The translations under genes and the position numbers were made by a program. Shown one piece after another: positions 8,613-59,488 of a stretch of DNA of 64,000 bases; positions within the stretch are counted from its first letter, which is position 1, and each line of letters opens with the position of its first letter. The notes beneath the pieces are model-generated. The model saw nothing but the letters and a program-made list of their open reading frames with translations. It ran no database searches and had not been told where the DNA came from. The DNA lies in the IMG/VR virus record IMGVR_UViG_3300021399_000006, positions 14,128 through 78,127 of that record. The stretch is one strand, 5' to 3'. The stretch is from a virus.

Positions 8613-8930
8613 TATTATATCATAATATTTTAATAAAGTCAAGTGCGGTCTCGGCGGCAAGGCCATATGCCTCGGTCTGAACCTAAGGGCCCTATGATGC
8701 GAGAAGCAGGTGAGACTGCACATAGGTCCATCTCCGCCTGACGGATTCACATAGGTGAATTCAGTTATGTGGATAGGTTCACCTTTGTGGATTGTGCAAA
8801 ATGCACAAAAATTTCGGGAATTTTGGCGAAAAATTTGTGCAATTTTTTTTGAAAAAAATATTGACATTGAGAGAATTTTGTGGTATAATCGGCGCGAACC
8901 ATGGTTCGCGCCCCGATGGTTTTAGATATG

Positions 8931-9717: not shown

Positions 9718-9897
9718 AGCTTATTTCCTTTCTGTTGCTTTCCTCTTGACAATTATTATTATATCAGATTATCGGGAAAATACAATATGTAATGTTGCAC
9801 AAAAATGTAGATGAAATTTTGGTAAGGTTGACTATTGACATATTTTGGGCGCTGTCTCAATGGACAGCGCCCCGGGCTTCCGCCTGGGACGACTGTT

Positions 9898-13743: not shown

Positions 13744-14133
13744 TTACTTTTTCGGGGGACGATGCTTGACAAGTTTCACAGTGTATGAATTACCGTTAAA
13801 AGTGAAACTAAATTCCGCTTCATTCTTTACACTGGACACGACACCGCCGAACACTTCAACCGCTGTTTTAATGGCAGTCAGCAGACCGCCTTTTTCAGCA
13901 TCGACCTTGCGTTCTCTTACGACCTTTTTGCGTTCCTTATCCGACTTTTCGTAGCGTCTACCGACCTCTTTAGCTTTTTTGGTCATGGCTTCCGCTTCCT
14001 CATTGTCTGTGTAATCATGGTCATCCAGCCAAACATCAATAGCTTCCTCTTTCGGAATGTCAAGGCTTGCCATAAGTTTTTTAATATCTCCATCGGGAAT
14101 ATTGATTTCTTTGCCATTGAAATTATATTTCAT
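13744..14133 (-). CDS. hypothetical Lys/Glu-rich protein
   Basis: Track ORF of 129 aa. Confidence 0.5.
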   Translation of the reverse strand: MKYNFNGKEINIPDGDIKKLMASLDIPKEEAIDVWLDDHDYTDNEEAEAMTKKAKEVGRRYEKSDKERKKVVRERKVDAEKGGLLTAIKTAVEVFGGVVSSVKNEAEFSFTFNGNSYTVKLVKHRPPKK

Positions 14134-14884: not shown

Positions 14885-15159
14885 TCTATCTCCTTTTGTG
14901 TGCTGTTCTTTGTTCCTTACAAGTATTATTATAAGGGATAGCAAGCGGAAAAGCAAGCAAAATTTTTAAAAAATTTGCACAAATTTCGGGATTTTATTTA
15001 ATTAAAATTTGTGCAGATTTTCACTTGACAAAAAGGTTGGCGGTATGGTATAATGGATTTTCCCCGCGGCCCGGAGGACCGCGGGGCGAGCAAAAAAAAT
15101 AGGGCCTGGAATATTCCAGGCCCACACACAGAAAGGAGGACAAATAAAAGTCAGTCAAG

Positions 15160-15232
15160 TGTGCCCGAAGGGACTTGAACCCTCGACCCTTTGATTAAAA
15201 GTCAAATGCTCTACCAACTGAGCTACGGGCAC
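15160..15232 (-). tRNA. tRNA-Lys (anticodon UUU), 73 nt, CCA not encoded
   Basis: Cloverleaf read by hand: acceptor GUGCCCG/CGGGCAC, D-arm GCUC-AGUUGGUA-GAGC, anticodon arm UUUGA-CUUUUAA-UCAAA, T-arm GAGGG-UUCAAGU-CCCUU. Confidence 0.75.
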
Positions 15233-15723: not shown

Positions 15724-16097
15724 AATGTTTTTCTCCTTTTTGATGAATGATTTTGTTTTCTTTATTTTATGTATTTATTATACTATAAGTTTTTTTATTT
15801 GTCAAGAACTTTTTTTATTTTTTATTTCTTGACTTTACAAGGAACACATGTTAGCAAGCCTTTGCATTTTTGCGTATTGGGATTGAGTCGGCTTTTGTTT
15901 TCCTCTTTCCCTTACCTTGTAAATATATTTTATCAAAAATTTTTAAAAAACGCAATATCGGAATATTGCACAAATTTCGGGATCTGTATTGATGTAAGTT
16001 TGTGCAGATTTTCACTTGACAAAATCTCAAGGATATGATATAATGGAATTTTCGCCGCGGCCCTGTGGACCGCGGCCCGCACAAAAAAAGGAGAGCC

Positions 16098-17243: not shown

Positions 17244-17487
17244 GTTATTTCCTTTCTATTGCTTTCCTCTTGACAATTATTATTATAAGCGATAGCCTTA
17301 AAAAACACAATAGGTAAATTATACAAATTTCGGGATCAAATTTTGTTTATTTTTATTGTAGATTTCACTTGACAAAAAGCTGGCAGATGTGATATAATTG
17401 AATTTTGGCCCGCGCCGGAGCACTACGCGCAGGCGCGGGCCAAGCACAAAAAAGCGACTTTTAAGGGGAAGTCGCCACCCCATAAAA

Positions 17488-17853: not shown

Positions 17854-18212
17854 AATTTTTCTCCTTTACTGATGAAAATCTTTTGTTTTCTTTTGATGAT
17901 GTTATTATATCAGGTTTTTTGTTTCTTGTCAAGGCTTTTTTTGAAAGTTTTTTAATTTTTTTCAAGTGATTGACCAGAGCCTTACCCCGTAGCCGTAACC
18001 ACCTGACTGCCTTTCCCTTACCTTGTAAATATATTATACTAAAAATTTTTTAGTTTTTCAAGATGGAATATTGCACAAATTTTGGGATCGTGAGAGATGA
18101 AAGTTTGTACAAAATGCCGATTGACTTTTTTCTGGCGGTGTGGTATAATGGAAATTTCGCCACGCGCTGGAAAGGGACGCACCAGCGCGTGGCGAGCAAA
18201 AAAACAGAGGGT

Positions 18213-18395: not shown

Positions 18396-19106
18396 AGTGA
18401 TATTCTCCTTTTCTGATGGTGATTATTAATTGAAATGCGTCCATCCTACCAGCCTAGGGGTTCCAGACGCTCCCCGTATGTTGCCTGCACATTTATATAC
18501 CGCAAAGTAGGACTTCGGCTTGCGGTGGTGGGTCTTTGTTAGGAAGACTTACTGCGACAACTTGGCGTCTTGGGTTCTTTCCCTTGCTTCCATCCCTCAC
18601 CTTATGTATTTATTATAGCACCTTTAGGTGGCTATGTCAATACCTTTTTTAAAAAATTTTTCAATCTTTGTGGTCCTGACCCGTGAGGTAGATTGAAAAC
18701 CCAGAGCGGTTTGTGTCGTGTCCTCGTCGCCATAGCACGGCTTTTTGTTTATTGAGGAGTTTGCTCTCCTCATTTGATGATTATATTCTATCATCTTTTT
18801 TATTATTTGTCAAGAGGAAATTTAAATTTTTTTAAATTCTTGCTTCGCTACCGTGTATCCACAAGCAGAAGACCCGAGGTCGGGAACATCTCCTGTCCTC
18901 TTGACAATTATTATTATAAGCGAAAACGGGCGGAAATGCAATAGGTAATATTATACAAATTTCGGGATCAAAAAAGATTGTTATTTGTATAATTTTCCTC
19001 TTGACAAAAAGCTGACGGGTGTGATATAATGATTTTTCCGCGCGCCCCGATGGTGCGCGCGGCAAGCAAAAAAAATAAGGGGATAGTAAACCCTATCCCC
19101 TTATTC

Positions 19107-19775: not shown

Positions 19776-20150
19776 TTTTATCACCTCGTTTTGTATTATT
19801 TTGTCGTATAGGGGATACCGCTGGTTCGTGTAGGCGGCAGATACCAAATCCCCTATAATAGAGAGCCACAGGTCTGTATGTGGATACCGCATCTCTATGG
19901 GGAGCACCGCTGGTTCGTATAGGCGGCAGATACCTGAACCTCATCTTGGTTCGCTCCCCCTTGACAATTATTATTATAAGCGATAGACCAAAAAAATGCA
20001 ATAGATAAAATGCACAAATTTCAGGATGGATCTTTGTGCATTTTTTTTGAAAAAATGCTTGACAAAAAGGTGGCAGGTATGGTATAATGGAACTTCGGCC
20101 CGCGGCGATGAGAAGCAAACCGCCGCGGGCCGGCCAAAAGATGAGGAGTT

Positions 20151-20342: not shown

Positions 20343-20823
20343 TTTTTTATCCCCTTTCTTTTGATGATTATATTATATCAAAATTTTTCTTTTTTGTCAA
20401 CCGTCAGAAATCAATTTTTTTATATTTCTGACGGTTGTAATCCTTTTTGGATTTGTGTGTGCGGATTCCTGTATTGAAGGGGACAAGCACACGTTTCTGT
20501 GCGTTTTTTGCTTTCCGCACTTTTTTATTTTCGTTTGTCATTTTATCACCCCCTTTTTTTTCTTTTTTAACTATAAATTCTACAAAATAATCCTTCTTGA
20601 TTAAACTCAAAACTAATGTTTTCTCCAGACATAGGATTTTCATATTCTAAATTATATTCATCCTCGTAAACAAGTTGCTGTCCTGTAATTTCCATCATAT
20701 TTTTAATTTGTTCTTTTGTCATATTTTTTATTTTCCTTCCATTCGATTGATTATTTGTTTTCCTTTAACTGTATTTATTATATCAAAGGGTTTGGCTTTT
20801 GTCAAGCCCTTTTTTCATTTTTT

Positions 20824-21123
20824 TTAAATTTTATTATATCCTGCTCTCATGTGCTCAATAGCAAGATTGATAATGTCCTGCGGAGCTTCGTTTTCTGCGT
20901 AGTACCGTCTAATCTGATTCGGTCTTGCGATAAGAATGGTAATCATAATACCTGTCCGCTTGTTGTAGATTACTACCAATCCGGTTGTAGTAATCTTATG
21001 GACTTCGGGTCCATTCTTATGACCACGGTCTACAGTGACTTCCTTTACAACCTGCCCCATTCCGATCTGGGCGATAATCTGGCTACGTCTCTGGCGGTCG
21101 GCTCTCCAATGCTTGCTGTTCAT
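20824..21123 (-). CDS. hypothetical basic protein
   Basis: Track ORF of 99 aa. Confidence 0.5.
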   Translation of the reverse strand: MNSKHWRADRQRRSQIIAQIGMGQVVKEVTVDRGHKNGPEVHKITTTGLVVIYNKRTGIMITILIARPNQIRRYYAENEAPQDIINLAIEHMRAGYNKI

Positions 21124-21333
21124 GTCGTATCTCCTTTCCTTTATCTTATGTATACATTATACCCCATGAGAGCGGCCATGTCAAGTAAAATATTGCACAA
21201 AATTTCAGGAATTTTGTGCCTGATCTTTGTGCACTTTTCCGATATTGATTTTTTCTAGCGGTTGTGGTATAATGATTCCCGGCCCGGCCTGGCAAGGGAC
21301 GGCCAGCCGCGCGCCGCGCAAAAAGGACGAGGA

Positions 21334-21438
21334 TTAATCCTCGTCCTCGCCATTGAACTCTTCAAGAGTTACACCACACTCTGCAAGCAGTTCCTCAAGA
21401 GTTGCACCATAGTTCATCATTTCGTTAAGAGTAGTCAT
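21334..21438 (-). CDS. tiny acidic peptide (34 aa)
   Basis: Manual ORF with its own TTGACA-17-TATAAT promoter and RBS. Confidence 0.3.
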   Translation of the reverse strand: MTTLNEMMNYGATLEELLAECGVTLEEFNGEDED

Positions 21439-21539
21439 TTTGTACCACCTTTCTTTTGTATGTTTGTTTTCCTTTAACTATATTTATTATATCTTAAAGG
21501 GGTTGTTTTGTCAACCCCTTTTTTTATTTTATTTTTTGA

Positions 21540-21700
21540 GGAGATTTCCACTCCTCTCTCTTGGATGGCTTTGATTGTAGCGTAAGCACTTTGGGGAACT
21601 TAATCTCCAGTTACCTCACCCCGAAACTCGGACCATCAGAGTTTAAAACCGAGCGCTTGGTAGCTAAGGAATCGAACCTTAGTAGAACCGTTCTACCTTT
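21540..21700 (-). ncRNA. ORF-free cassette slot, candidate small RNA carrying a tRNA-like T-arm (GGUUCGAUUCC)
   Basis: Bounded by standard cassette promoter/terminator motifs. No ORF of 30 aa or more even with TAG read as sense. Confidence 0.3.
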
Positions 21701-21757
21701 CCTTTGATGATTATATATTATCATATTTGTTGACTTTTGTCAACCCCTTTTTTTATT

Positions 21758-21919
21758 TTATTTTTCAAGCCATTTGTAAAAGTTCTTTTTCCAGTTCTCA
21801 ATGATTTTTACAGTGTAAAAATCATCTTTACAAATTTCTTCAACCCTTGCATCGTCCATGTGATAACCGTTCTGAATCATTTCGTTGAAGATTGCTTTCT
21901 TGATTTCGTAGTTTGTCAT
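21758..21919 (-). CDS. small protein (53 aa)
   Basis: Manual ORF, own promoter. Confidence 0.35.
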   Translation of the reverse strand: MTNYEIKKAIFNEMIQNGYHMDDARVEEICKDDFYTVKIIENWKKNFYKWLEK

Positions 21920-22012
21920 TTTGTACCACCTTTCTTTGATCGGTTTGTTTCATTTCTTGATTATATTATATCAAAGGGGTTGAGGTTTGTCAACCCCTTT
22001 TTTAAAATTTTT

Positions 22013-22168
22013 TTAATCCCAAAAACCAGACCAAACAGAAAACCCTTGTTCATTTACTATTACGTGATCGAAATAGCCATTATCATATTTTTCCATATAA
22101 TCCAGGCAGTCGGCATAAGACCCCTCAAAAACAATTAATTCATCTTCGTTGCGTTCAACTCGATACAT
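22013..22168 (-). CDS. small acidic protein (51 aa)
   Basis: Manual ORF. Confidence 0.35.
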   Translation of the reverse strand: MYRVERNEDELIVFEGSYADCLDYMEKYDNGYFDHVIVNEQGFSVWSGFWD

Positions 22169-22266
22169 TTTAAATCTCCTTTTCATTTGATTGGGTTTTG
22201 TTTTCCTTTAACTGTATTTATTATATCAAAGGACTTGGCTTTTGTCAAGCCCTTTTTTAAAATTTT

Positions 22267-22446
22267 TTAGCACTCCCACGGTCCATCAGGGAAAAATGTT
22301 ACACAATTAAGGTCGTCATCCCATCCGCAAGAAAGAACATAGTTCTGCCACTGTCCAGACATAGCATCAATTTCTTTTTCCATTTTATCCATCATGTCTG
22401 CATCAATAGTAACGACTGCATCTAAAAACCATACATAACCTTTCAT
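22267..22446 (-). CDS. small acidic protein (59 aa)
   Basis: Manual ORF. Confidence 0.35.
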   Translation of the reverse strand: MKGYVWFLDAVVTIDADMMDKMEKEIDAMSGQWQNYVLSCGWDDDLNCVTFFPDGPWEC

Positions 22447-23022
22447 TTTATACCACCTTTCTTTTGTGCTTTTGTTTTCCTTTGATGATTATATTATATC
22501 AAAGGGCTTGGCTTTTGTCAAGCCCTTTTTTGATTTTTTTAAAATCTTTCTTTTAAAGCAAAACCCTTTTCATTACGAATAGCAATGTAGTCATAAGGAA
22601 ATTTTTTACAGGCTTTTTCAAAAACTTTTTCCGCTTCTTTCATAGTTGCTACTTTAAAACCGTAACGGAGAAAACCTACTGTGATGTGGAACATTTTGTA
22701 CCCCTTTCTTTGGATCGATTATTGTTTTCCTTTGATGATATAAGTATATCACACTATAGAAAAAAGTCAATAGATTTTTAAATAAAATATTGTACAAAAA
22801 AAGGATTAAAATAAAATAAATAATTATGCACTTTTCCCTCTTGACAACTGGCTGTCACATGTGATATAATGTTTCGGCCTGCAGCGGCCGCTTCCGCAGG
22901 CTTTGGAAAGAATGTTAAATTATTAACAATCGATCTTCTTTTGTACGATCGATTGTTAATAATACGCTTTGTTATAATATAATAAAAGCCTTATTAGTTT
23001 TATACTAATAAGGCTTTTATTT

Positions 23023-23265
23023 TTATTTAACGTCAACACCTTGACTTTTCAAATATGCAATTCTTGAAGGAACATATTCGTTATATCTTTTTTCAAGCTG
23101 TTCTTTTGAGTATCTCATAACATAGCTTCTATCAGCTTCTTTGTAGATACCAAGTTCAACCATTCTGTTAACCATAGCTTTCTTTGTCATTTTAAACCCC
23201 TTTCTCGATCGGTTCTTTGCTTCATTTGATAAATCAATTATAACGCTAAAAGACATATCTGTCAA
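23023..23265 (-). CDS. hypothetical basic protein
   Basis: Track ORF of 80 aa. Confidence 0.45.
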   Translation of the reverse strand: MTDMSFSVIIDLSNEAKNRSRKGFKMTKKAMVNRMVELGIYKEADRSYVMRYSKEQLEKRYNEYVPSRIAYLKSQGVDVK

Positions 23266-45772: not shown

Positions 45773-45860
45773 ATAATTTAATTTTAATCGCTCTCTTTGT
45801 ATATTATTACAAAGAGAGCGATTTTTTTATTTTATTTGAAAACAAAGGAGGAGATAATTA

Positions 45861-48800
45861 ATGGCTCAACAAGGAGGAAGAATAGATTTTTAGGTAGGTT
45901 TTAAAGCCGATAAATCTGGAATCAATGATATTAAAAAGAGTCTGCAAGATTTACAAAGAATAAAAATAGCAAATTTTGACGGGCCACAAGAAGATTTAAA
46001 AAGAATAAAAAATACTGCAAAATAGGTACAAAGTGCGTTAACGAAGGCTTTTAATCCAAATTTAAATACTATAAACTTAAAAACTTTCAATAGTTCATTA
46101 AAAGAATCTGATTTAACAATAAATAAAATATATTCAGATTTTTCTCAGGCTGGAGCACAGGGGCAGGTAGCATTTAATAAAATGGCAACCTCTGTGTTAA
46201 CAACAAATCAGTCTTTAAAACAAACAGAAAATATTGTTACTAAATTAGGATAGACTTTTGTTAATACTATAAAATGGAATATTGCTTCTAGTGCTATTAA
46301 TACTTTTACAAGCGGAGTTCAAAATGCTTTTACTTACGTTTAGCATTTATAGAAATCTTTAACTAATATTAGAATTGTTACTGGCGATTCTCAGCAAAAA
46401 ATGGAAGAGTTTGCGGCATCTGCTAATCGTGCTGCTCAAGAATTAGGACGTAGCACTATGGATTATACCAAAGCCGCCCTTACTTTCTATCAACAGGGTT
46501 TAAATGATGAAGATGTTCAAGCTAGAACTGAAGCCGTTTTAAAAGCACAAAATATTACTGGCGCTGGTTCATAGATGGCAGATTATTTAACTTCTGTATG
46601 GAATGGTTATAAAGTTGCTAATGAATAGGCGTAGGTTTATGTTGATAAACTTGCCGCAGTTGCAGATACTAGTGCATCTGATATGAGTTAGTTAGCTATT
46701 GGTATGTCTAAAGTTGCATCTACCGCTAATACAATGGGTGTGGATATAGACCAATTAAATGCTCAATTAGCTACTGTTATTGCTACAACAAGGCAAGCTC
46801 CAGAAGCTGTCGGTACTGCATTTAAAACCATATACACTCGTATGAATGATATTAAAACTGGATCAGATGAAGCTGAAATCAGTTTAGGAAATTATTCTGG
46901 TAAAATGGCAGAGTTAGGTTTTAATGTTCTTGATGCTACAGGCCATTTAAGAGACACAGGATAGGTTATGTAGGAGATAGGTAGCCGCTGGGAAGATTTA
47001 ACAAGAGAACAACAAGTTTATTTGGCTACTACGATGGGTGGTCAAAGACAGGTTAACCAGTTAATGGCTCTATTTGACAACTGGACTACATATAGTGAAT
47101 TATTAAATACATCCCTTGAATCTGAAGGTACTCTTGCACAGAAAAATTCTGTTTATCTTGAATCTCTTGGGGCTAAGATGGAGCAATTAGGTGCCGCAGG
47201 AGAAAAAGTAAAAGATAACTTAGTTGACAGTTAGAGTTTTGGTAAATTTATAGATATATTAACAAAAGGGACAGATTTATTAGGAACTTTTGTTGAATCT
47301 ATTGATGGTGGCGGTTCAGCTCTACTTGGATTAGGTGGTATTGCAACACAGGTCTTTAGCGGTACAATCGCTAAGGAAATTAATAAAATAGTTGTTAATT
47401 TTCAAAATATGAAATTTAATATGGATCAAGTAAATTAGCAACTAAGATTAATTGAAGATTTTGGTAATTCTCAAGGTTATCAGCAAGGCGCCATTGATGA
47501 AATGTTAAATGTAAAACGTCAGATGATAGATTATAGCGCTGTAATGACGGAATAGGATAATAGAGAATATAATGCTATTGTTAAAAAAATTGGTGCTGAA
47601 CAACAATATATATTATAGTTACAAGATAAAATTGAAAAAGGTAAAGAATATAATGAAATAATTCAACAAGCTGTTTTAGAAAATCAGAAAAATGGAATAG
47701 AAACTTCTTTCAATGATGTTCAAATGGAATTACAACAAAGTATTGAAGATATAACAAAATCTTTATCTGATTTTCGTGGTGCAATGGCATCTGGTTTAGA
47801 AAAAGATAATTTTACAACAGGTCTTATTACAGAATTTGAAATTGTAAATAGTTATTTAAATAATAAATTACCAGAAGGTTTTAATAAAACTTACGAAGAA
47901 TTAACAAAAGAGCGTGATAGATTATTAAAAGAATCAGAGAATATTATAACAGAAGATGTTTCTCGTATAAACCAAAGAATTATCAATCTAATAAAAACTG
48001 CTGTAGGTAGTATTTCGGAAAATTTTAATTTTAGTTTAGATGTAAAAACAAATACAGCAGAAATTGAATTAGCAAGAGATAGAATACAAGAATTAAAGGG
48101 GGATGCTCTTCAATTATAGCAATCTTTAAAACAAGCATTATCTATAAAAGGCGGAGTAGAGGTTGTAGGTGCCTTAGGATCTATGTCTTCTGCAATTTTA
48201 TCTATGCAAAAAGGATTAAGTAGTCTTACTGATGAAAATCTTTCTCCTTTAGAAAAAATGCAAAAAGTATTGATGAGCATAGGATATTCTCTTCCTATGC
48301 TAATAACTAGCTATCAAAAATTATCAACCTGGACTAAGACTTTTACAGGTGCTATAACAAAAGCTATGACTATTCAATAGCAAAAAATGGCTATTGAAAA
48401 AGCAGAAGAAGCATTAAATAAAGCTAAAATAGCAAGAGAGTAGGCAGAAATTGCTTTAAAAAATAAAAATAATGCTTTATTAGTGGTAGAAAATAATTTA
48501 CAATAGAAAGATGTTTCAAGTGCAATGAAATTAGCTGGGGCTAAGCTAAAAGTAAAATAGGCTACAGAGGCGGCGGCCACAGCAAAAGAAAAATAGGCTT
48601 TAGCTACTAAAGAGTTAGAAAGTGCACAGACAAAGTTAAATTTATCTACTAATCTTTTTTCTAAAATAGGTATTGTAGCAGCTATCGTTGCAGTTGTATT
48701 AGTTGCTAAAAAATTATATGAAGTATATAATCAAGATGCAATCGCCGCTTAGAGGGCGGCAAAAGCTGCACAAGAAACAAAGAAGACTTATGATGATTTA

Positions 48801-51800
48801 AAAACTTCTTTGGAAGATACAAAAAAGGCTTTAGAAGATTTACGTTCTTCAGAAAGTGCTTTATAGGGATTATCTCGCGGTACAGAAGAATGGAAAAATG
48901 CATTATAGGATTGTAATAATAAAGTTCTTGAATTAATTTCTAACTATCCACAATTAGCTAAATATGTAGAAAATACTAATGGACAATTAACTATATCTCA
49001 AGAAGGCCAAGAAGCATATTTAAATCAATTAGAGCAAGGGGTAAAAAACGCTCAAAATGCAAGTTATATTGCAAATAGTAATGCTAATTAGCAACAAATA
49101 TATTCAGATGCTGCTGCTATTGGGCATAGAAGTATATACACTTATGAAGATAGACAATCTAACGGTAAAATGGAAGAAGAAAGTGCTTCCGCCACAAGAC
49201 AAGAAGTAATTTAGATTGTTTAGGCTATTGATAAAATTATAGATTCTGGTGGAGATTTATCATAGGGATTAAATGGACTTAAAGATCAAATTGTTAATAA
49301 AACAGGTTTAAATGAAGCTTTAGTTGATGCCGTTTTATCTAATGAGTAGGCGGTCTTAGCTTTAAGAGACCAAATGCAAGAAAATGCTTTAGCCGATAAA
49401 GTTATGTATCAAGGTATGGCTGAAAATAACTTAATGAATAATTCTACTTATAGTGGAGCAGATGATTTAGGTAAACAAGTTATATCAGCTATAGGCGGAG
49501 CAGATTTATAGGCAGCAGTAAAAGATGCTTAGGAAGAATGGCTTAAAAAAATGGAAGGCTCTCAAATGAGCCGTTTTGACAATGCTGCTAGTGCTAATGT
49601 TCAAGAAATTTTAAAAGCATTAAATGATGCTCAAAACACAAATTGGAGTTTAGACTCTAATGCTGTTAGAGGCGGAGATAATGAAAGAACGATTGCTTTT
49701 CTTGATGAACAACATTAGGTTCAAATTTTAACAAAAGAACAAATTGCTTCTACTATTGCTGCAAAACAGGCTTTATAGGAATTAGGCATATCCGCGGAAA
49801 ATGCCGCGAAGATGTTAACTGAGATAGATAGTCTCCAAATTATGGATTCCGCAAAATCTGCAATTAAACAGTGGGTAGCGGGTCAGGATATGACAAATAT
49901 TAATCAAGCTGGGTTAGATAATATCCAAGGTAAAACTCTTAATGAAATATTTGGTGGAGATGAAGAACAGTTACAACAAGCAGCTAAAGCGCGTGGTATT
50001 GAAATTGAAGGTAATGAAGATTGGCAAAGTCAATTAGAGAAGGACTGGAGTGATTCTTGTAATTATTTAAGCACTGCTTTTGATGAAGTTGCAAAAGATG
50101 CAACTGATAACGTAAAAAATGCTTGGGAAACATTAAAAAAAGATAATGACATAAAAGAAGCTACTTTAGGAACTCAACAACAGTTAGTAGAAGATATGAG
50201 ATAGGCTTTTACTAAAGGCGGAGAAGAGGGATTAAAGACTTTAACAGATTTCTTTAGTAAAACTGAAGATTTAGATTCTTTAAAAGAATTGTCTGAAGGA
50301 TTAGATTTTAATACACTTTCAGTTGAAAATTTTAAAACAGCTCTTGAAGAAGCAGGTATAAGTACTTCTGCTACAAACGAAGAAATACAAAGATATATTG
50401 AAACTCAAAAATAGCTATCTGAGGTTTTATCTCCTGAATAGAATTATAAAAATGTTCATGATATTACAGATGGATTAAAAAGAGGAGATACTATAGATGC
50501 TGAGCAAGCAGAAACATTAAAAACGGCGGGGATTAATGTTGATGCATTCTTTTCTCATATGGCAGATGGGTCTTTAAAATTAAAAGTTAATGCAGAAGAT
50601 TTTCAATCTTATATTAATCAAATAACTTTAGAACCATTTAAGAATAAAATTGATGAGTTACAAAATAAAATTAACGGAATACAATCATTCCAACAAACTG
50701 ATTATGCCGCGGGGAATGATAAGGGAAATACTTTTGAAGATTTTTCAAGTATGGTAAGTCCCTATGAACAAGGTTCTTATGATATTGATAAGATAGAAGC
50801 ACAATTATAGTTTTTAAGAGCAATAGGTGAAGAAGATTAGCATATTACTCAAGTAGAAACTGATTTACAAAATTCACGAGTTTCTTCATACGAAAGTTTA
50901 AAAGCTATTTCTGATTTAGTTAAAGAGCATGCCAATGATTATAATGATTTAAATGGTAAAGTAGATTAGTATAAACAAAATATTTAGATTTTAAATGAAC
51001 AAATGCAAAATGCTAATTAGTTACCTTTAGATGCAGATGTTGATACAGATAAATGGGAAAGTTTAACTGAGCATATTCAAGAATATGCTTAGGCAAATGA
51101 CGAGTTAGCAGATTCATTAGCAACTGATATTGATACAGCGTAGGATGTAGCTTAGGCAATTTTACGTTTTGACAGTGCTATTGGATAGGTTAAAGATCAT
51201 TATGAAGAATGGTTAGAAGCATTATCTTCTGATTCTATTGAAGATCAAGTTCAAGCATTAGATGAATTAGAAAATGCTTATTCTGATATTTTGGATTTAC
51301 CTTTTGATAATGTTTTAAGTGATAGTTTTTTACGAAGTGCTGAAAATTTAAATTTATTGCGAGAAGCTGCTAATGGTAGTGAATAGGCTTATAATCAATT
51401 AGCTTAGGCGGCAGCAAAAGATATATTAATAAATTGTGGAATTGATACTTCTCAATTTGACATAGATAAAAGTTATATTGAAAGTTTTATTTTTGACGAA
51501 GGGGCTTTCCCGGATCTTGAAATTGGGGCTAGCTTAGATAGTGAACCGTTTCTAAATGGTTTAACTGATATGATTAATGCCGCTCATATGACACAAGAGC
51601 AAGCAACTGACTATTTAGCAAATATGGGTGTTGACGCTTAGATTATTTAGGCAGATAGCGAGGCAACAGAAACAAAAGAGCAGACAGGATTTCATGGATA
51701 GCCAGTTCCAACACCTTTACCTTATGAAGTTCCTATTGCTAATGGTATGTCAGTAAGTACAGTTGCTTCCACAGGTTTAGTGACTGGAGTAAATTGGGTT

Positions 51801-54800
51801 CCTGATGAAAATTTAATTCAAGATAAAAAAGAAAATAAAGCCTTTTCTTTAAAAGTTGTTTCTGCAAAAAAATCTTCAGGTGGTGGTTTTAAATTTAGAA
51901 ATTCTTCCGCTGGAAATAAAGGTAAAGGCGGCGGCGGCGGAGGAGGTAGAGGTAAGAAAGGTAGAGGAGGAAAAGGTAAGAAGGGATCTTCTAAAACTCC
52001 AAAAACCTAGAAACCTATAACCGATAAACCCGATCGTTATCATGATGTTAATCTTAAATTAAAAGATATTGATAATGATTTAAGTAAGATTCAAAAATAG
52101 CAAGATAAATTAACAGGTAAAGATTTATTAAACAATCTTAATAAACAATTAAAACTTCTTGAAAAACAAGTAGCTACTTATAAAGAAAAACTTGAGTTAG
52201 AAAGACAATAGGCTAATTAGATTCGTAGTCGTTTAAAGAAATAGGGTGCTACCTTTGATCCGAATGGAAATATTTCTAATTATAGCAAACTTCTTACAAA
52301 AGCATTAAATGAATATAATGATGCAGTTGCTAGATATAATAAGATGAGTGCGGAAGAGCAATAGAAAAATAAAGATTTGCTTGAAAACGCTAAATTAAAA
52401 TATGAAAATCTTAAAAAAGATATATAGCGTTACGATAAAATTATATCGGAAGAAATTCCTGGATTAGAGAAATCTATTCAAGAAGCTATCGACAAACAAA
52501 CTGAAATTAATATTCAAAAATTTAAAATTAAAGTTGATTTAGAAATGGATATGTCGGAAGCATAGCGGGAGTTTAATGAATTTGCAAGAAAAGTTAAAAA
52601 ACAATTAAGAGACGATGATATTCTTGGAAATGCTAAATCTTATTTAAAAGATTATTCTTCTTATTATAAAGGTGGATATGACGTTATTCAAGGCCTAACA
52701 GATCAAGTTTTTAATACTTTAGCGGAAATTAATAATATTAACAAACAGGGTATTTCTTCAATATACGGTACCGATAAGGCTGCCGCATTAAAAGATTTAC
52801 AAGAATATACATAGGCATTAATGAGCAATCTTGAAGATATAGAAGATGTAGTTGCTAATATTAAAGATTCTATTTTTGATGCTATTGATAAGGCACAAGA
52901 TGCTTTTGATGAACAAAAGAAAGAATATGAATATATTGCTGATTTAATTGAACATAATCAAAAGGTTGTTGAATTACTATATGGAGAAGATGCTTATAAA
53001 TAGTTATAGAAATATTATGAATTACAAGAGAAAAATAATAAAGACCAATTAGACTTTTTAAGACAGCAAAAAGAAATGTGGTATTCTCGTATGGAAGAAG
53101 AGCGGGTAAGGATGAATAATCTTACTGAAGGTACAAATGCCTGGAAAGAAGCTAACGACCGCTTTGAAGAATATAAAAGACATTGGATGGATGCTGTTGA
53201 TGATATAAATAGCCAGATTGAAGATTCTCTTGATAATTTAATTGATAAATATACTAATGCTGTTGATAAAATCTTTTTAGTCTTTGAAAATAATATTACT
53301 AATGGAAAAGGTTTAGATAATATTGCGGAAGAGTGGTAGCTAATTGGTAAACAAGCGGATCAATACTTAGATAAAGTAAATTCTATGTATGAAATTGATA
53401 AACTTGAAAATGCTTATAGAGATGCTATTGATGATAATGATGGTAATTTAAAAGCCCAACAATCTTTAAATAATTTAATGAATGAACAATTAAAATATTT
53501 AAAAGATAAAGATAAATTAACTCAATATGATGTTGATAGGGCAAATGCTTTGCTACAAATTGAAATTAAACGATTAGCTTTAGAGCAGGCTCGTCAAAGC
53601 AAGACTAAGTTACGTTTAAGAAGAGATGCACAAGGCAATTATACTTATCAGTATACAGCAGATTAGGATGCAACAAGACAAGCTCAACAAGAATTGGCGG
53701 ATGCTTAGAACAGTTTATATAATTTAACAAAGTAGGCATATAAAAATAATTTAGATGATTATTATGATACTACTGAAGAAATGAATGAAAAAATAAGGGA
53801 CGTTTATAAAGATACAACTTTGTCTGCGGAAGAGCAAAATCAAAAAATTGCTATGATTTATGAATATTACGGTGATATTATAAATAATTTAACATAGCAA
53901 AATGAAGATTTAAAGAAATTTATGATGGAAGATACATTTAACGAAATGGCAAAAATGTATAATACCAACGTATAGAATTTTAAGAATATGACAGATGAAG
54001 AAAAAGATATTCTTATGAATGATATGGTCCCTTATTGGAAATCAAGTATTCAAGATATGGCTGATACTTTTGCGGGAGCAGGTGGTTTCGGACCTATAAC
54101 TTAGGATCTGTTTAATGATTTAATAGATAATTCTAAAGATTATCAAGATTCATTAGATGAAATAGGTAAAATTGCAGGTGTAAGTTTAGAAGATATTAAA
54201 AATGCTACTGATGTAAATATTCAAAGAGCAGAAACTTTATTAGAAAAAAATGATGAATTAATAGATTCTTATAATGAAGAAATGTCAAAAGTACAATAGG
54301 TTATTAATGAAGTTGAAAGATTAGTACAAACTTATCAGAGAGCCAAAGATGCCGCTATTCAAGCAACAGAGGCGGCTTATGAATATACTCAAAGAGAAAG
54401 TGCTAATACTGCGAATCAATTAATTGATAATAAAAATACTGCTGGCAAGTCTTAGTATACAAAGGCGGCCGCCTTTGATACAGGTGGATATACTGGAGAT
54501 TGGGGAGATGTAGGTAAAACTGCAATTCTACATGAAAAAGAAATAGTTTTAAATGCTTAGGATACTATTAATCTTTTATCGGCAGTAAAAATCACAAGAA
54601 CGTTAAGTGATATAATTTCTAATTTTAATATGGAACCTATTGGATTAGGAAGAGTAGTTAATAATACTAATAATTCTTCTAATAGTACCTCTCAAAATAT
54701 TACTATACATGCGGATTTCCCTAACGTTACCGAAAAATCTGAAATCGAAGCCGCATTTAATAATCTTGTTAATAAAGCAAGTCAATATGCTTTTAGAAAA

Positions 54801-54809: not shown

Positions 54810-54846
54810 AACAGGTAGATATTTATATCTACCTGTTACTTTTTTA
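54810..54846 (+). terminator. Rho-independent terminator after the tape measure
   Basis: ACAGGUAGAUAU-UUAU-AUCUACCUGU + UACUUUUUU. Confidence 0.65.
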
Positions 54847-54928
54847 TAGGGCAATTAATTATAATATACATTATATTTTTTTTATAAAAAAATAGAAATT
54901 CAAAGAGAAAAAAGGAGGTCTTATAAAT

Positions 54929-57900
54929 ATGAGTGGTGAACAATATTCTGATGCTCTTTTATAGGCAATGTCTGTTATTGCAGATCGTACAGTTTCAAAT
55001 GCGAAATATAATAAAACCATTCAAGCTACTGTAGTAGAATGTATAGACTCTACTATAGGAGAATATAAAATAAAATATCAAAATGGGTATTGGACTGCAT
55101 ATAGTTAGAATGTTAATACTACTTATATGCCTGGAGCGAGTGTTTATATAAATATTCCAAATGGAGATATGTCTTCTATAAAAACTATTGTCGGCACAAC
55201 TCAAAAACTTGGAATAAATTATATTAACGTAATTCCAGAATAGGGACAATATGAAGATAATGGTAATAATATTTTAACAAATAATCAAGGATATAGTTTA
55301 TCTTCATATAAAACGGAAAATTTAATTATTTTTGAAGAAGGTAACGATAATTTTTACGATGCGGATGCCGCAAACATATATATAAAAAGTTCTTCTCATT
55401 TACAGTTTGCTTTTGATATTCAAACAGATTTAAATTATGAACAGAGATATAATGGTAATTATGGAATTAAGTTTTATTTAAAATTTAAAGATAATACTTT
55501 TGAAGAGACAGTAACGAGAGTTTATACTTTTGATATTTATAAGATGGAAGGTAATCCATATTCTTTCTTTAATAAAACGAATCAGAAAGCTGTTTTTGAA
55601 ATAGACGGTGCTAATTTTATAGGAATCGAAAAAATAGAATTATTTACATAGCGTTTTCCAAATCAAGATGAAAATGCGAAAGATGATATTTTTATTTCTA
55701 ATTTATCTATTAAAGGTATGAATCAATTATCTCAAGAAGAAATGGATTCTGTATCACTTTCTTTTGTTGCAAGAAGAGGATATATTTTTAATGATAATTC
55801 TGATGACAACGATACACGTCCAATTTAGGCTGTTGTAAGAGTTTTAGGAAAAGTTGTAAATGAAGTAAGCCAAAATTTAAAATTTTATTGGTTTGTTCAA
55901 AATGTAAGTATCACTGAAAGTAATCCTTTTTATTTAAAATACGGTGGATATGGATGGAAATGTTTAAATAATTATAATGTTTTATCTTCAGATGAAAATG
56001 GAAATCCTTCAACTATAGAATACATTCCCTCTAAACCTACTTTTTCTATAGCAAAAAAAGATGTAAAAATAAAATAGCAAAAATATAAATGTGTAGTATT
56101 ATACGGAGATAGTTCTTTTTCAAAAGAATTCGTTATAATAAATGAAGATGCTTCTTATAAAATGATTATTGTTTCTGATGCTGGAACTTAGTTTATTGCG
56201 GATGCAGGCTCCCCCACTTTAACATGTTATGTTATGGATAGAAATTAGGAAGAAGTTGATTCTATTATTTATCGTTGGGGAGTTATTAATAATCAAGGTA
56301 TTTATAGTTATTTACCTGAAGGTAATATTAATATAGACGAAAATATAGAATATGGTTATCCAGAAGCATTAGAAGAATATAATCAATTAAAAGAAGGAAT
56401 TGAAAATCATTCGATTTTGCAATATGAAAAAAATGAAAAAGATAAAGACTTATCTAATATTAAAAGATTAGAATGGCTAGAAGATAGAATAAATACTTTT
56501 AAACAACAACAAACAGTTTATCAAAACAAAATATTTTTTGTCGATATAAAAAGAATTGATAATTTTAGTACATATATATGTACGGTAATGGATGAAAATA
56601 ATAATGTTTTGGGAACGCAAGAAATTACTTTAATTAATAAAAAGACTTCTAATGGTGGATATTCTCTTGTTATAAACAACGGAACGCAAGTTTTTAATTA
56701 TAATGAAGAAGGTATTAGTCCTTGTGAGGATTAGAATATTAAATATGTAATTCCTGAATTAACTTTTACTCTATATAATGAAAAAGGGGAAGAGGTTAAT
56801 CAGGATTATATTAATGTTAATAATATTAAATGGTTTTTCCCTAATAAAGAAAATAGTTTATTAACACATAATTATGATAATACTCCTTTAGATTTTTATA
56901 ATCAAAAAACTTTTTCTTATGGTATTAGTAAAAAATATTTTTCTAATAAACAATAGAACGATATAAAATTAGAAGTAACTTATAATGGGTATACATTAAA
57001 AGCTAAAACAAATTTAACTTTTACTAAAGAAGGTTTTTTAGGAACAAATGGTACAGGCTTAGTTTTAAAAATAGTTCCTGAGGGATTAACAGGAACTAGT
57101 CCTTGTTTAAAAATATCTCCTTCAAAAGCAAATCAAAAAAAATTAATTGGAAAATTTAATTTTGATAGTTTAAAAGCATAGTTATGGGATGGAGAACAGC
57201 AAATAGAAAAGGCAGATTCTTATTTTTGGTAGATATTAATACCAGTAAAAAAAACGGAAACTTTTTTAAAAATAAAAACTTCATCAACATTAACAACAAC
57301 ATCTTCTTTTATTAAATTAGAAGTAAATAATAGTAATATTAAAAAAACATTAACAGATAACCCTTATAACATTATAAAATTGACAGTAACTTATAACGGT
57401 AAAAAAATATATACAACATTACCTATTTGTATTTATAAAGTTACAGTAGACTCACAATATGATATTGAATTAAAAGAAAATTCAGGTTTTAAATATGTTT
57501 TTTATGCTTAGGACGGAACTCGTCCTAATTATAATGATAAAACACCTTTTACAATTACCGTAAAACAAAAAATTGGTAATATAGATTTTGAAGAAATTAA
57601 TACTGTTGCTTCAAAAGATTTATAGTTTTCTTATGTAGCTAATGGTAATTTTAAAAATACTTCTCAAAAAGATAAAACAATTCAAACTTTTGCACCAATA
57701 CCTTTATCTTATTTTAATGGATAGACTTTAGATAATTATGTTTATTGTTTAATTACAAAAAATAATAGCCAAGATGGAACTATTACAATCGGTTAGGCTT
57801 TAATTCCAATTCATATGATGCTTAATCGTTATGGACATGCCGCTTTAAATGATTGGGATGGTAATTCTATTGATATAGGAAATACTTCTCATGATACTAT

Positions 57901-59488
57901 TTTAGCCCCACAAGTTGGAGCAGGATAGAAAAATAAGAATGGTGAATTTTCAGGAATATTGATGGGCAGTGTAAAAATTCCTAATAAAACTTAGAATGGT
58001 TTATTTGGTTATTCTAAAGGTGCCCGTACTATATTTTTAGATGCAGAAACAGGAAATGCTAATTTTGGTATTGCAGGAAATGGTCAAATTCAAATTAATG
58101 CTGAACAAAGTATTATTACTGGTGGAGGTTATAATATAAATAATTATAACTCTGATATAAAAAAAGATACAAATAAAGAAGGTATGTTAATTCACCTTCA
58201 AGCACCAGAAATTAGATTTGGTTCTAAAAAATTTTATGTTACTTCTGAAGGTTAGCTATATGCACAAGGTGGTGGCCAAATTGCAGGATGGAATATTAGG
58301 GATACTAGTTTAAGTAAAAGTATTTTTAATAAAAAAGGTGAAGAAATTAGTAGTACTGGTATGAGTTCTGATAATAGTGATAAAACTAATTTAGCTTTTT
58401 GGGCAGGAAACCAGTTTAATGTAGATTTTAATGGACATGTAAATGCAACCTCTATTGATATAGGTGGAGATAATAAAAATCACCAAGATGTCCATATTAC
58501 AAAAGGAACAATTTATAGTGGTAAACATAAACCTTTTAACAGTACAGAGGATGGATTCTTTTTAAATTATGCAGGTTTATCTATTGGGGCAGATTTTAGA
58601 GTAACTTCTTCAGGATATTTAACAGCAAAACAAGGAACTTTTGGAAATGCTACTAAGAATTTTACGATAGGAATTTTTGAGGATAAGGATGGAATTACTT
58701 ATACATCTCTTAAAGGAAATAATGTATATTTAGGAACTGATAAAATATCGTTAGGTTCTAATTTTTCTGTAGATAATACGGGTAACTTAACAGCTTCTTC
58801 TGGTAAAATTGCAAGTTGGTATTTTACAGATGGTGCTTTTTATAATCAAACTGCTAAAGATGCTGCTGATAAAGACAATGAAGTTGGATATGGAAAATGG
58901 AACGATAAAACGAAAAAATATGATAGCATTTATGAAAAAGGTATGTATTTTGGAAACGGTGGAATAAGATTTGGTGCTAATTTTCATGTAGGTAGTAATG
59001 GTAATATGTTTGCTATCGCTGGTACTATAGGTGGATGGAGTATTGGTTCTAGTTCTTTAACTGGAGGTAGTTTAAAATTAAATAGTGATGGTTCTTTATC
59101 AGGACCTGGTTGGAGCATTGCTTCTAACGGAGAAGCTACTTTTAGTAATGTAAAAAGTGCTAATATAAAAGGTGGGACTATATCAGGAGGAAGTAGAACA
59201 GGTGGTAGTATTGATCCAAGTAAAGTTAAGGCTCCCTATGGCAGTGGTCCTTCTGGCAGTGGCTTTAATGGAGGCACTTTAAATCAATGGTGTAAAAATA
59301 TTGTTACTACAAGTATTACTGCGGATTATATTACAAGTAAATTGAATTAGTCAGACTGGTCTATAACTAAAGACCTTTCAATTTGGGGGGATGCTTTTTA
59401 TAAAGGTTCTGAAATTGCTACTCGAGATTGGGTAAATACTCAATTAACACACTATGCAAAAAAGGGTGAGACACCTTCTTCAGGGTAA
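54929..59488 (+). CDS. large tail / host-recognition protein, 1,519 aa, TAG-recoded, with beta-helix-like Gly-rich repeats
   Basis: RBS AAAGGAGG. Track ORFs 56417..56734 and 58361..59350 in the same frame. Confidence 0.6.

Follow-up and report, generated by a model that had tools for sequence, protein, structure and literature searches.

The window analysed here is a stretch of 64,000 nt from the IMG/VR virus record IMGVR_UViG_3300021399_000006 (positions 14,128 to 78,127 of that record). It contains, between 20.7 and 22.6 kb, six elements in which a hairpin and the -35 box of a minus-strand promoter are formed by the same bases, and these hairpin-promoter elements are the subject of the present analysis. 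The guanine-cytosine (GC) content of the window is approximately 31%. Reading TAG as a sense codon yields 27 open reading frames (ORFs) of at least 200 amino acids (aa) in the plus-strand region 28972-61543, against 9 with the standard code; long ORFs obtained in this way on the plus strand between 29 and 62 kb include 45858-54800 (2,981 aa) and 54812-59485 (1,558 aa). Among the translations with TAG read as Q, a portal protein (PHROG 2739, E=1.6e-71) and a terminase-like (TerL-like) protein are found. Given these long ORFs together with the portal and the terminase-like protein, the window appears to derive from a stop-codon-recoded phage in which TAG is apparently reassigned. No suppressor tRNA is present in the window; its sole tRNA is a tRNA-Lys(UUU) at 15159-15232 (minus strand).

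The hairpin region belongs to a part of approximately 8.5-24.5 kb that is encoded on the opposite strand, can be read without recoding and is crowded with tiny minus-strand genes, each having a strong Shine-Dalgarno (SD) sequence and a perfect TTGACA-17-TATAAT promoter. Because of these consensus promoters, the TRTG-extended -10 elements and the AGGAGG SD sequences, we infer that these are early genes, which would be read by a host polymerase of the Gram-positive type. The proteins flanked by the elements are ORFans, with no Pfam or PHROG match and sporadic homologues only. A megablast search of 14.0-24.5 kb against 50,697 phage records gave a best match of 46 nt and no relative beyond that, and a search of the literature on early promoters of recoded phages turned up nothing relevant.

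Anatomy of the hairpin-promoter elements

An initial annotation of this DNA had listed six such elements, each described as a plus-strand terminator whose bases supply the -35 box of a minus-strand promoter. All six are present, five as strong hairpins and the one at 21735 as a truncated copy. The overlap with the -35 box is real as well: the minus-strand promoters match TTGACA-17-TATAAT at 12 of 12 positions at five sites and at 10 of 12 at 21743.

The first hairpin (20785-20812, -17.2 kcal/mol) reads AAAGGGTTTGGCttttGTCAAGCCCTTT on the plus strand, followed by T6CAT8, and is flanked by the genes 21123-20824 and 20722-20567; its minus-strand promoter has the -35 box at 20805-20800 and the -10 box at 20782-20777. 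The second (21496-21521, -15.2 kcal/mol) pairs GGGGTTG with CAACCCC in a stem of 10 bp with a 6-nt loop, followed by T7 on the plus strand. Its minus-strand promoter (-35 at 21514-21509, -10 at 21491-21486) precedes a 34-aa gene at 21438-21334. The third, truncated copy (21729-21744) retains only GTTGACttttGTCAAC, a stem of 6 bp with a folding energy of -7.1 kcal/mol. Its 5' GGGG arm is unpaired and CCCC intervenes between stem and U-run. The minus-strand promoter at this site (-35 at 21743-21738, TAATAT as -10 box) serves a non-coding, tRNA-like region without a clear gene. The fourth hairpin (21973-22000, AAAGGGGTTGAggtttgTCAACCCCTTT, 11 bp, -17.2 kcal/mol) lies in the minus-strand promoter with boxes at 21993-21988 and 21970-21965, upstream of gene 21919-21758. 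In the fifth (22228-22255, AAAGGACTTGGCttttGTCAAGCCCTTT, -12.4 kcal/mol) an A.C mismatch on the plus strand corresponds to a G.U pair on the minus strand; the minus-strand promoter (-35 at 22248-22243, -10 at 22225-22220) precedes gene 22186-22013. The sixth, which served as the quoted example of the annotation, is found at 22501-22528 (AAAGGGCTTGGCttttGTCAAGCCCTTT, then T-rich, -18.8 to -20 kcal/mol), with a minus-strand promoter (-35 at 22521-22516, -10 at 22498-22493) in front of gene 22446-22267. A 39-nt core of this hairpin is identical to positions 1115-1153 of the related locus L074.

Overall, the five stable hairpins have folding energies between -12 and -20 kcal/mol and z-scores of -3 to -6. 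The 5' arm (GGGS-TTG) covers the first bases of the minus-strand -35 box and the 3' arm sits in the spacer. The fold GGGCUUG-loop-CAAGCCC, which had been ascribed to every element, holds exactly at 22504-22525 only (0.00 expected in shuffles); elsewhere GGGG/CCCC or wobble variants are found, including the mismatched stem near 22225. All six copies have approximately 80-100 nt of flanking promoter and 5' untranslated region (5'UTR) sequence in common, and therefore represent one duplicated family rather than six independent events.

The placement of the elements is intergenic: stop codons lie 10-20 nt upstream, and the SD sequence and ATG of an ORFan follow downstream. Within the window an embedded -35 stem is found at 5 of the 24 near-consensus minus-strand promoters. 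The tandem junctions in 20.7-22.6 kb carry one hairpin each, and none is found at the minus-strand promoters 23265, 21184 and 18061, which stand back to back with a plus-strand promoter. A separate hairpin at 20397-20435 (CAACCGTCAGAAAT..ATTTCTGACGGTTG) abuts the -35 box of the minus-strand promoter at 20400 and is a variant of the same junction design, with the stem-loop upstream of the -35. Searching Rfam at gathering and E-value thresholds returned the tRNA-Lys only, with no match for the hairpins or the candidate non-coding RNAs.

Conservation and variation among related loci

A locus search with a 134-aa early protein alone gave nothing, and an alignment-based search succeeded. In total, 31 non-redundant related loci were obtained from viral contigs, by one scan for a pattern and two scans anchored on proteins, and they contain an extraordinary number of near-consensus promoters (664 forward and approximately 215 reverse). 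Hairpins that embed the -35 box occur at 37 of the 664 forward promoters, where 4.05 are expected from shuffled flanks (a nine-fold excess), and at none of the approximately 215 reverse promoters. Arm sequences vary among these hairpins, as do the loop (3-10 nt) and the spacing between 3' arm and -10 box (1-12 nt). Pairing is nevertheless kept across the divergent arms, with compensatory combinations GGGC/GCCC, GGGG/CCCC, AGGC/GCCT, AGTG/CACT and ACTA/TAGT; at position -1 the pair is C:G in 13 cases and G:C in 18. In an ungapped alignment of 20 sequences, changes on both sides are seen at five pairs, amounting to 13 cells; as much covariation was attained by 0 of 500 shuffles. Compensatory substitutions of this kind need selection on the structure itself. 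The hairpin feature is real and under selection.

Comparison by blastn of the window with the related loci L121, L074, L123 and L126 shows that only promoter cassettes of 40-95 nt match, with up to 100% identity over 41 nt. The ORFs between the cassettes are unrelated across the window and its relatives, and synteny with L121 breaks at the promoter/5'UTR. The number of hairpins differs per locus, from five in the window and nine in L074 to none in L121. How closely a stop codon, a hairpin and a promoter can be packed is illustrated by positions 720-745 of L074, where the upstream ORF stops with a TGA that is part of the hairpin and of the TTGACA serving as -35 box for the following promoter.

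The arrangement is also found outside this family. Among 126 sites with AAAAAGGGSTTGACAAA in unrelated viral contigs, 33 have the complementary SCCC in the spacer (4.6 expected), which suggests that a -35 box inside a terminator hairpin is a widespread phage design. At 16 of these 33 sites a promoter-strand T-run is additionally found inside the spacer; this symmetric form has the appearance of a bidirectional terminator with the -35 box in its loop. The window elements represent a variant with a long stem, which takes up the whole spacer.

Terminator form, convergent promoters and proposed function

That each element is a textbook terminator on the plus strand, as the initial annotation had it, applies in form to five of the six sites, judged by a GC-rich stem, a loop of 3-8 nt and, directly behind the stem, a U-tract of at least 6. 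Here the stem is followed by T6-T7 and then further T, and a d'Aubenton-Carafa-type d score (meant for comparison between strands rather than for absolute calls) amounts to +18 to +54. The truncated copy at 21729-21744, with its CCCC-separated U-run, is weak. On the minus strand the score ranges from -16 to +7.5, because only UUUGAUAUAAU (U3) follows the stem; the terminator form is marginal on this side. The window copies differ from a bidirectional terminator in carrying A6-8 on one side and only T3 on the other. In the family as a whole, good terminator form is seen for 23 of the 37 hairpins on the antisense strand and for 8 of the 37 on the promoter strand. Folding energies show no consistent difference between the plus and the minus strand for these hairpins. 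The asymmetry of wobble pairs was tried as an indicator of the functional strand (5 promoter-strand against 3 opposite-strand wobbles; 6 G.U cells in A3) and turned out uninformative, because the -35 box and the GGGS flank fix the 5' arm and only the C-rich 3' arm is free, so that transitions in the latter give promoter-strand G.U pairs by composition alone.

The origin of the U-run deserves separate attention. It is complementary to an A-tract that precedes essentially every forward promoter of the family in the same register. The T-score is 4.73 with and 4.63 without a hairpin (p=0.30), and the mean number of A residues in -12 to -5 is 5.4 at hairpin promoters and 4.85 at hairpin-less ones, with A6-A8 runs abutting the stem. 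The U-run is therefore not a special adaptation of hairpin promoters; these are set apart by the GGGS that precedes the -35 box and by its complement in the spacer.

The minus-strand cassettes are interleaved with 12-13 convergent plus-strand promoters, which have an 18-nt spacer, an extended -10 box and a very GC-rich hairpin next to them. Members are located at 8861, 12784, 13596, 15025, 16016, 17369, 18121, 19001, 20059, 21245, 22841 and 23434. Their family consensus is TTGACA-17/18-TGnTATAAT with the conserved spacer aaaaggtggcggtatgg, and the GC-rich hairpin, at about +5, varies in sequence but has recurring loop motifs (e.g. GGGAC and GAAGC). It is followed by an A-run and then by the terminator of the converging gene block. 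The family is conserved in the relatives, where a segment of at least 60% GC comes after 94 of the 214 reverse promoters, compared to 15 of the 664 forward promoters; no consistent difference in folding energy by strand is seen for the GC hairpins (40 against 52, p=0.10). Of all that was noted in this region, this combination of convergent promoter and GC hairpin may be the most unusual. Two of the promoters face hairpins of the present array. The one at 20059-20088 (TTGACA-18-TGnTATAAT, 12 of 12), with its GC hairpin at 20096-20132, would give a transcript antisense to three genes that reaches the first hairpin after approximately 725 nt, and weaker hairpins at 20397-20435 or 20487-20502 could stop it earlier. 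From the one at 21245-21273 (TTGATT-17-TGnTATAAT, 10 of 12, extended -10), which is followed by a GC-rich hairpin region at approximately 21278-21319, a transcript antisense to gene 21438-21334 is predicted; the first plus-strand terminator on its way is the 21496 hairpin, where it would stop after approximately 250 nt. Such an RNA would span exactly one 34-aa cassette. An equivalent arrangement is found in L074, with a reverse promoter near 1460 and a hairpin at 1115.

Two contexts are associated with the hairpins. An ORF end on the same strand lies within 60 nt upstream of 29 of the 37 hairpin promoters, compared to 249 of the 627 others (p=4e-6; odds ratio approximately 4.7-5.5), and a reverse-promoter module lies within 1.5 kb downstream of 28 of the 37, compared to 236 of the 627 (odds ratio 2.6-5). 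Both effects hold jointly: hairpins are most common where both contexts occur (24 of 144 promoters) against 4 of 266 promoters with neither. No enrichment is found, however, at the first promoter that an antisense transcript would meet (8 of 138 against 29 of 526, p=0.84). As the looser distance test is positive and the first-promoter test is null, the link between hairpins and reverse modules is real, yet not position-specific.

We favour, with moderate confidence, the reading that the elements are composite promoter/terminator junctions resembling the promoter-early stem-loops (PeSLs) of T4-type phages, which would act as two-way insulators of tandem early cassettes and more strongly so against antisense transcription. 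As double-stranded DNA, such an element reads as a consensus sigma-A/sigma-70 promoter with an upstream A-tract. Transcribed either way, its GGGS-TTG...CAA-SCCC palindrome is predicted to fold into an RNA hairpin, a pairing that is supported by the covariation. An antisense polymerase on the plus strand would thereby produce a hairpin followed by U6-7, which to judge from its form would be a canonical intrinsic terminator. Read-through on the minus strand, by a polymerase coming from the upstream cassette, would give the hairpin followed by UUUGAUAUAAU, a weakly pairing sequence of the -10 region, and this site would be at best a partial terminator or attenuator. The net result would be that each tiny cassette forms a self-contained transcription unit, insulated in both directions. 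Comparison with the relatives suggests that the element of approximately 40-95 nt may also serve as a homology patch for the shuffling of cassettes, because it is the only conserved sequence between otherwise unrelated ones.

Several observations weigh against this reading. The closest relative, L121 (89% aa identity for a neighbouring gene), has no such hairpin at all, and at its orthologous promoter both arms have decayed (tcacTTGACAaaaaccaaattc against gggcTTGACAaaagccaaaccc); the hairpin is therefore dispensable. At the ends of gene blocks, the genuine forward terminators carry U7-8, beside which the U3 of the minus strand is weak, and 13 of the 37 family hairpins score as a terminator on neither strand. 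Furthermore, the counts are inflated by the origin of copies through duplication, and the context associations may in part reflect a clustering of hairpins, ORFan cassettes and reverse modules in one subregion.

According to the initial annotation, the overlap would stop convergent antisense transcripts exactly at the promoter of the next cassette. If the hairpins were dedicated plus-strand terminators of this kind, the minus-strand hairpin would be irrelevant. This reading is supported in part; as the sole function it seems rather unlikely to us. The canonical plus-strand form beside a marginal minus-strand one, the convergent promoters at 20059 and 21245, the predicted one-cassette antisense RNA with its counterpart in L074, and the excess of reverse-promoter modules nearby all agree with it. 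The first-promoter test does not, the U-run is generic and no stronger at hairpins, and the ORF end upstream on the same strand is tracked at least as strongly as the reverse modules. Moreover, five hairpins of the window are placed in series behind one strong terminator, and because four of the six lie beyond the one at 21496, few plus-strand transcripts should get to these. Five other plus-strand promoters of the window, at 15025, 16016, 17369, 18121 and 19001, meet no such hairpin. Among the relatives, L121 retains reverse modules while lacking hairpins, and L130 has three hairpins for only one reverse promoter. The opposite possibility, that the elements are classical PeSLs only, i.e. minus-strand co-directional terminators or attenuators for the upstream cassette with the plus-strand form as a by-product of the A-tract, we judge unlikely. 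It would account for the strong tie to ORF ends (odds ratio about 5) and for the presence of hairpins at tandem junctions and their absence at back-to-back promoters, and half of the hairpins of this kind in unrelated phage contigs have the promoter-strand T-run in the spacer. In a reporter test a PeSL stem-loop indeed ended co-directional transcription (PMC2839356). In the window, however, the minus strand offers only U3 and a d of about 7 or less, with positive scores in just 8 of the 37 family members, and the phage's real forward terminators look different.

It is very unlikely that the palindrome has no transcriptional role, being a mere passenger of a promoter cassette that moves or duplicates, or having no other use than as a recombination hotspot or a structure at the DNA level in the exchange of cassettes. 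The flanks that the copies share, the near-identical elements beside unrelated genes in different phages and the variable presence of hairpins between lineages would fit such a scenario, and a role in recombination was proposed by the PeSL authors (PMC2839356). The compensatory substitutions and the nine-fold excess over shuffled controls speak against it, and a positional bias towards ORF ends and reverse modules is hard to obtain from hitch-hiking alone. An integron-like attC/recombinase system was considered and rejected: no recombinase is found among the neighbouring ORFs, and attC sites are much longer than these hairpins. The position of the inverted repeat, which has its centre on the -35 box and spacer of early promoters, is also a classic one for a repressor, so that a dimeric phage or host protein bound across the -35 might shut off these promoters. 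We regard this as extremely improbable. The arms differ between copies (GGGGTTGA, GGGCTTG, AGTGTTG, ACTATTGAC) without a conserved half-site, and with a loop of variable length the 3' arm shifts relative to the -10 box; this variability of loop and arms argues against a fixed protein operator. In addition, most early promoters, including all in L121, do without the palindrome, and no DNA-binding domain was detected among the neighbouring early proteins.

A more far-reaching and speculative reading appears very improbable. Recycling of Escherichia coli RNA polymerase after termination has been shown at promoters in either orientation (PMC11364550). In the present array the modules of convergent promoter and GC hairpin would launch defined antisense RNAs over whole early cassettes; a polymerase terminated on the UP-like A-tract could remain on the DNA, turn round (for which the C-terminal domain of the alpha subunit would be needed) and re-initiate at the overlapping sense promoter. 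If such a hand-off were true, the array would couple antisense and sense transcription, beyond mere insulation.

Further features were observed around the convergent promoters. Each plus-strand promoter is separated from a divergent minus-strand promoter by an inverted repeat, TGCACAAATTTCGGGAT...TTTGTGCA (14975-15015, 15965-16010, 17320-17360, 18070-18110, 18950-18995, 20008-20040 and 21195-21219). Its core ACAAATTTCGGGAT is found four times exactly and twice with one mismatch, and compensatory changes occur in two copies (TATACAAAT/ATTTGTATA). The repeat is a candidate operator or structured element. Adjoining these modules is the motif TTATAATAATAATTGTCAAG(R)GG, present six times (0.06 expected) on the minus strand at 9745, 11755, 14915, 17269, 18900 and 19960. 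With TTGCAT or TTGTGT as -35 and TATAAT as -10 box, it resembles a promoter of a second minus-strand class, in which the initially transcribed sequence is conserved. The plus-strand promoter at 22841 apparently drives a discrete small RNA of approximately 145 nt (22877-23025, plus strand), predicted to contain a 14-bp hairpin (ATTAACAATCGATC/GATCGATTGTTAAT) and to end at a bidirectional terminator (22981-23021) in common with the converging gene 23190-23023.

On the minus strand, GC-richer non-coding stretches with consensus promoters are located at 21540-21700, 18440-18600, 17965-18035, 15830-15925 and 18690-18780. They probably represent small RNAs, and gave no Rfam match and no ARAGORN call. 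One has a tRNA-like T-arm (GGTTCGATTCC) that is kept in L121 (12520-12660) and L074 (2140-2330), and two begin with ACAAGGTAAGGGAAAG. Finally, a tandem pair of approximately 29-nt repeats (ACCGCTGGTTCGTRTAGGCGGCAGATACC) is found on the minus strand at 19800-19950, in the leader of gene 19907-19593. The repeats are kept in L074 (3010-3100) and L121 (11520-11650), and the region is a possible structured 5' leader.

Comparison with known systems

PeSLs are composite promoter-terminators of T4-type phages (Arbiol et al. 2010, PMC2839356; Comeau et al. 2014, PMC4122927). Each of them joins a stem-loop, often GGGG...CCCC, which may lie between or overlap the -35 and -10 boxes, to a strong sigma-70-like early promoter with an AT-rich tract upstream, and they are found upstream of ORFans in hyperplastic regions (PMC2839356; PMC4122927). 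In a reporter, one PeSL stem-loop was as good a terminator as rrnB T1, and modules are shuffled by way of the motifs (PMC2839356; PMC4122927). The window elements appear to share every sequence-level feature of this description. They combine a strong early promoter of the sigma-70 type and an AT-rich tract upstream of the -35 box with a stem-loop, often GGGG...CCCC or GGGC...GCCC, between the boxes or overlapping the -35. They are placed between the stop codon of a small ORF and the SD and ATG of the ORFan that follows, they cluster in an early region that is plastic, and they form the only conserved sequence between shuffled cassettes, as expected for points of exchange.

The differences are nonetheless considerable. 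PeSLs are known from T4-type myoviruses of Gram-negative hosts, whereas the present elements belong to a TAG-recoded phage with Firmicutes-type promoters and SD sequences; given this different lineage they are an analogue of PeSLs and not a homologous member. The canonical U-run is here on the antisense strand, the co-directional side having only U3, and the array is interleaved with modules of convergent promoter and GC hairpin that are undescribed for PeSLs. Terminator activity is putative for the present elements, as would be the formation of mini-circles.

Similarities with two other systems are more limited. Bidirectional intrinsic terminators, hairpins with both an A-tract and a U-tract, are known from full-length RNA profiling in bacteria. 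As in these, a symmetric hairpin with an A-run on one side and a T-rich sequence on the other could stop transcription in both directions. The classical examples, however, are located between convergent genes, whereas the window elements stand between tandem genes and inside a promoter, with very unequal sides (U6-7 against U3). In the host-takeover module of SPO1, small early genes each have their own promoter and terminator. Similarly, lambdoid morons are cassettes with a promoter and terminator of their own (discussed in PMC2839356). The likeness lies in small early or accessory genes that each have a strong host-type promoter and their own terminator; the difference is that promoter and terminator are separate there, whereas here they have 28 bp in common.

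Summarizing, the hairpin-promoter elements are real, but given their resemblance to PeSLs only moderately new. For annotation they imply a warning, since a "terminator" called on one strand may really be a promoter on the opposite strand. In synthetic biology, a 28-bp consensus promoter that is at the same time a predicted strand-asymmetric terminator might be a compact insulator part. Compared to the PeSLs known so far, the elements would extend composite promoter-terminator cassettes from T4-type phages to unrelated, uncultivated recoded phages with promoters of the Gram-positive type. This suggests a recurrent solution for packing and shuffling tiny early genes, be it for host takeover or of the ORFan kind.

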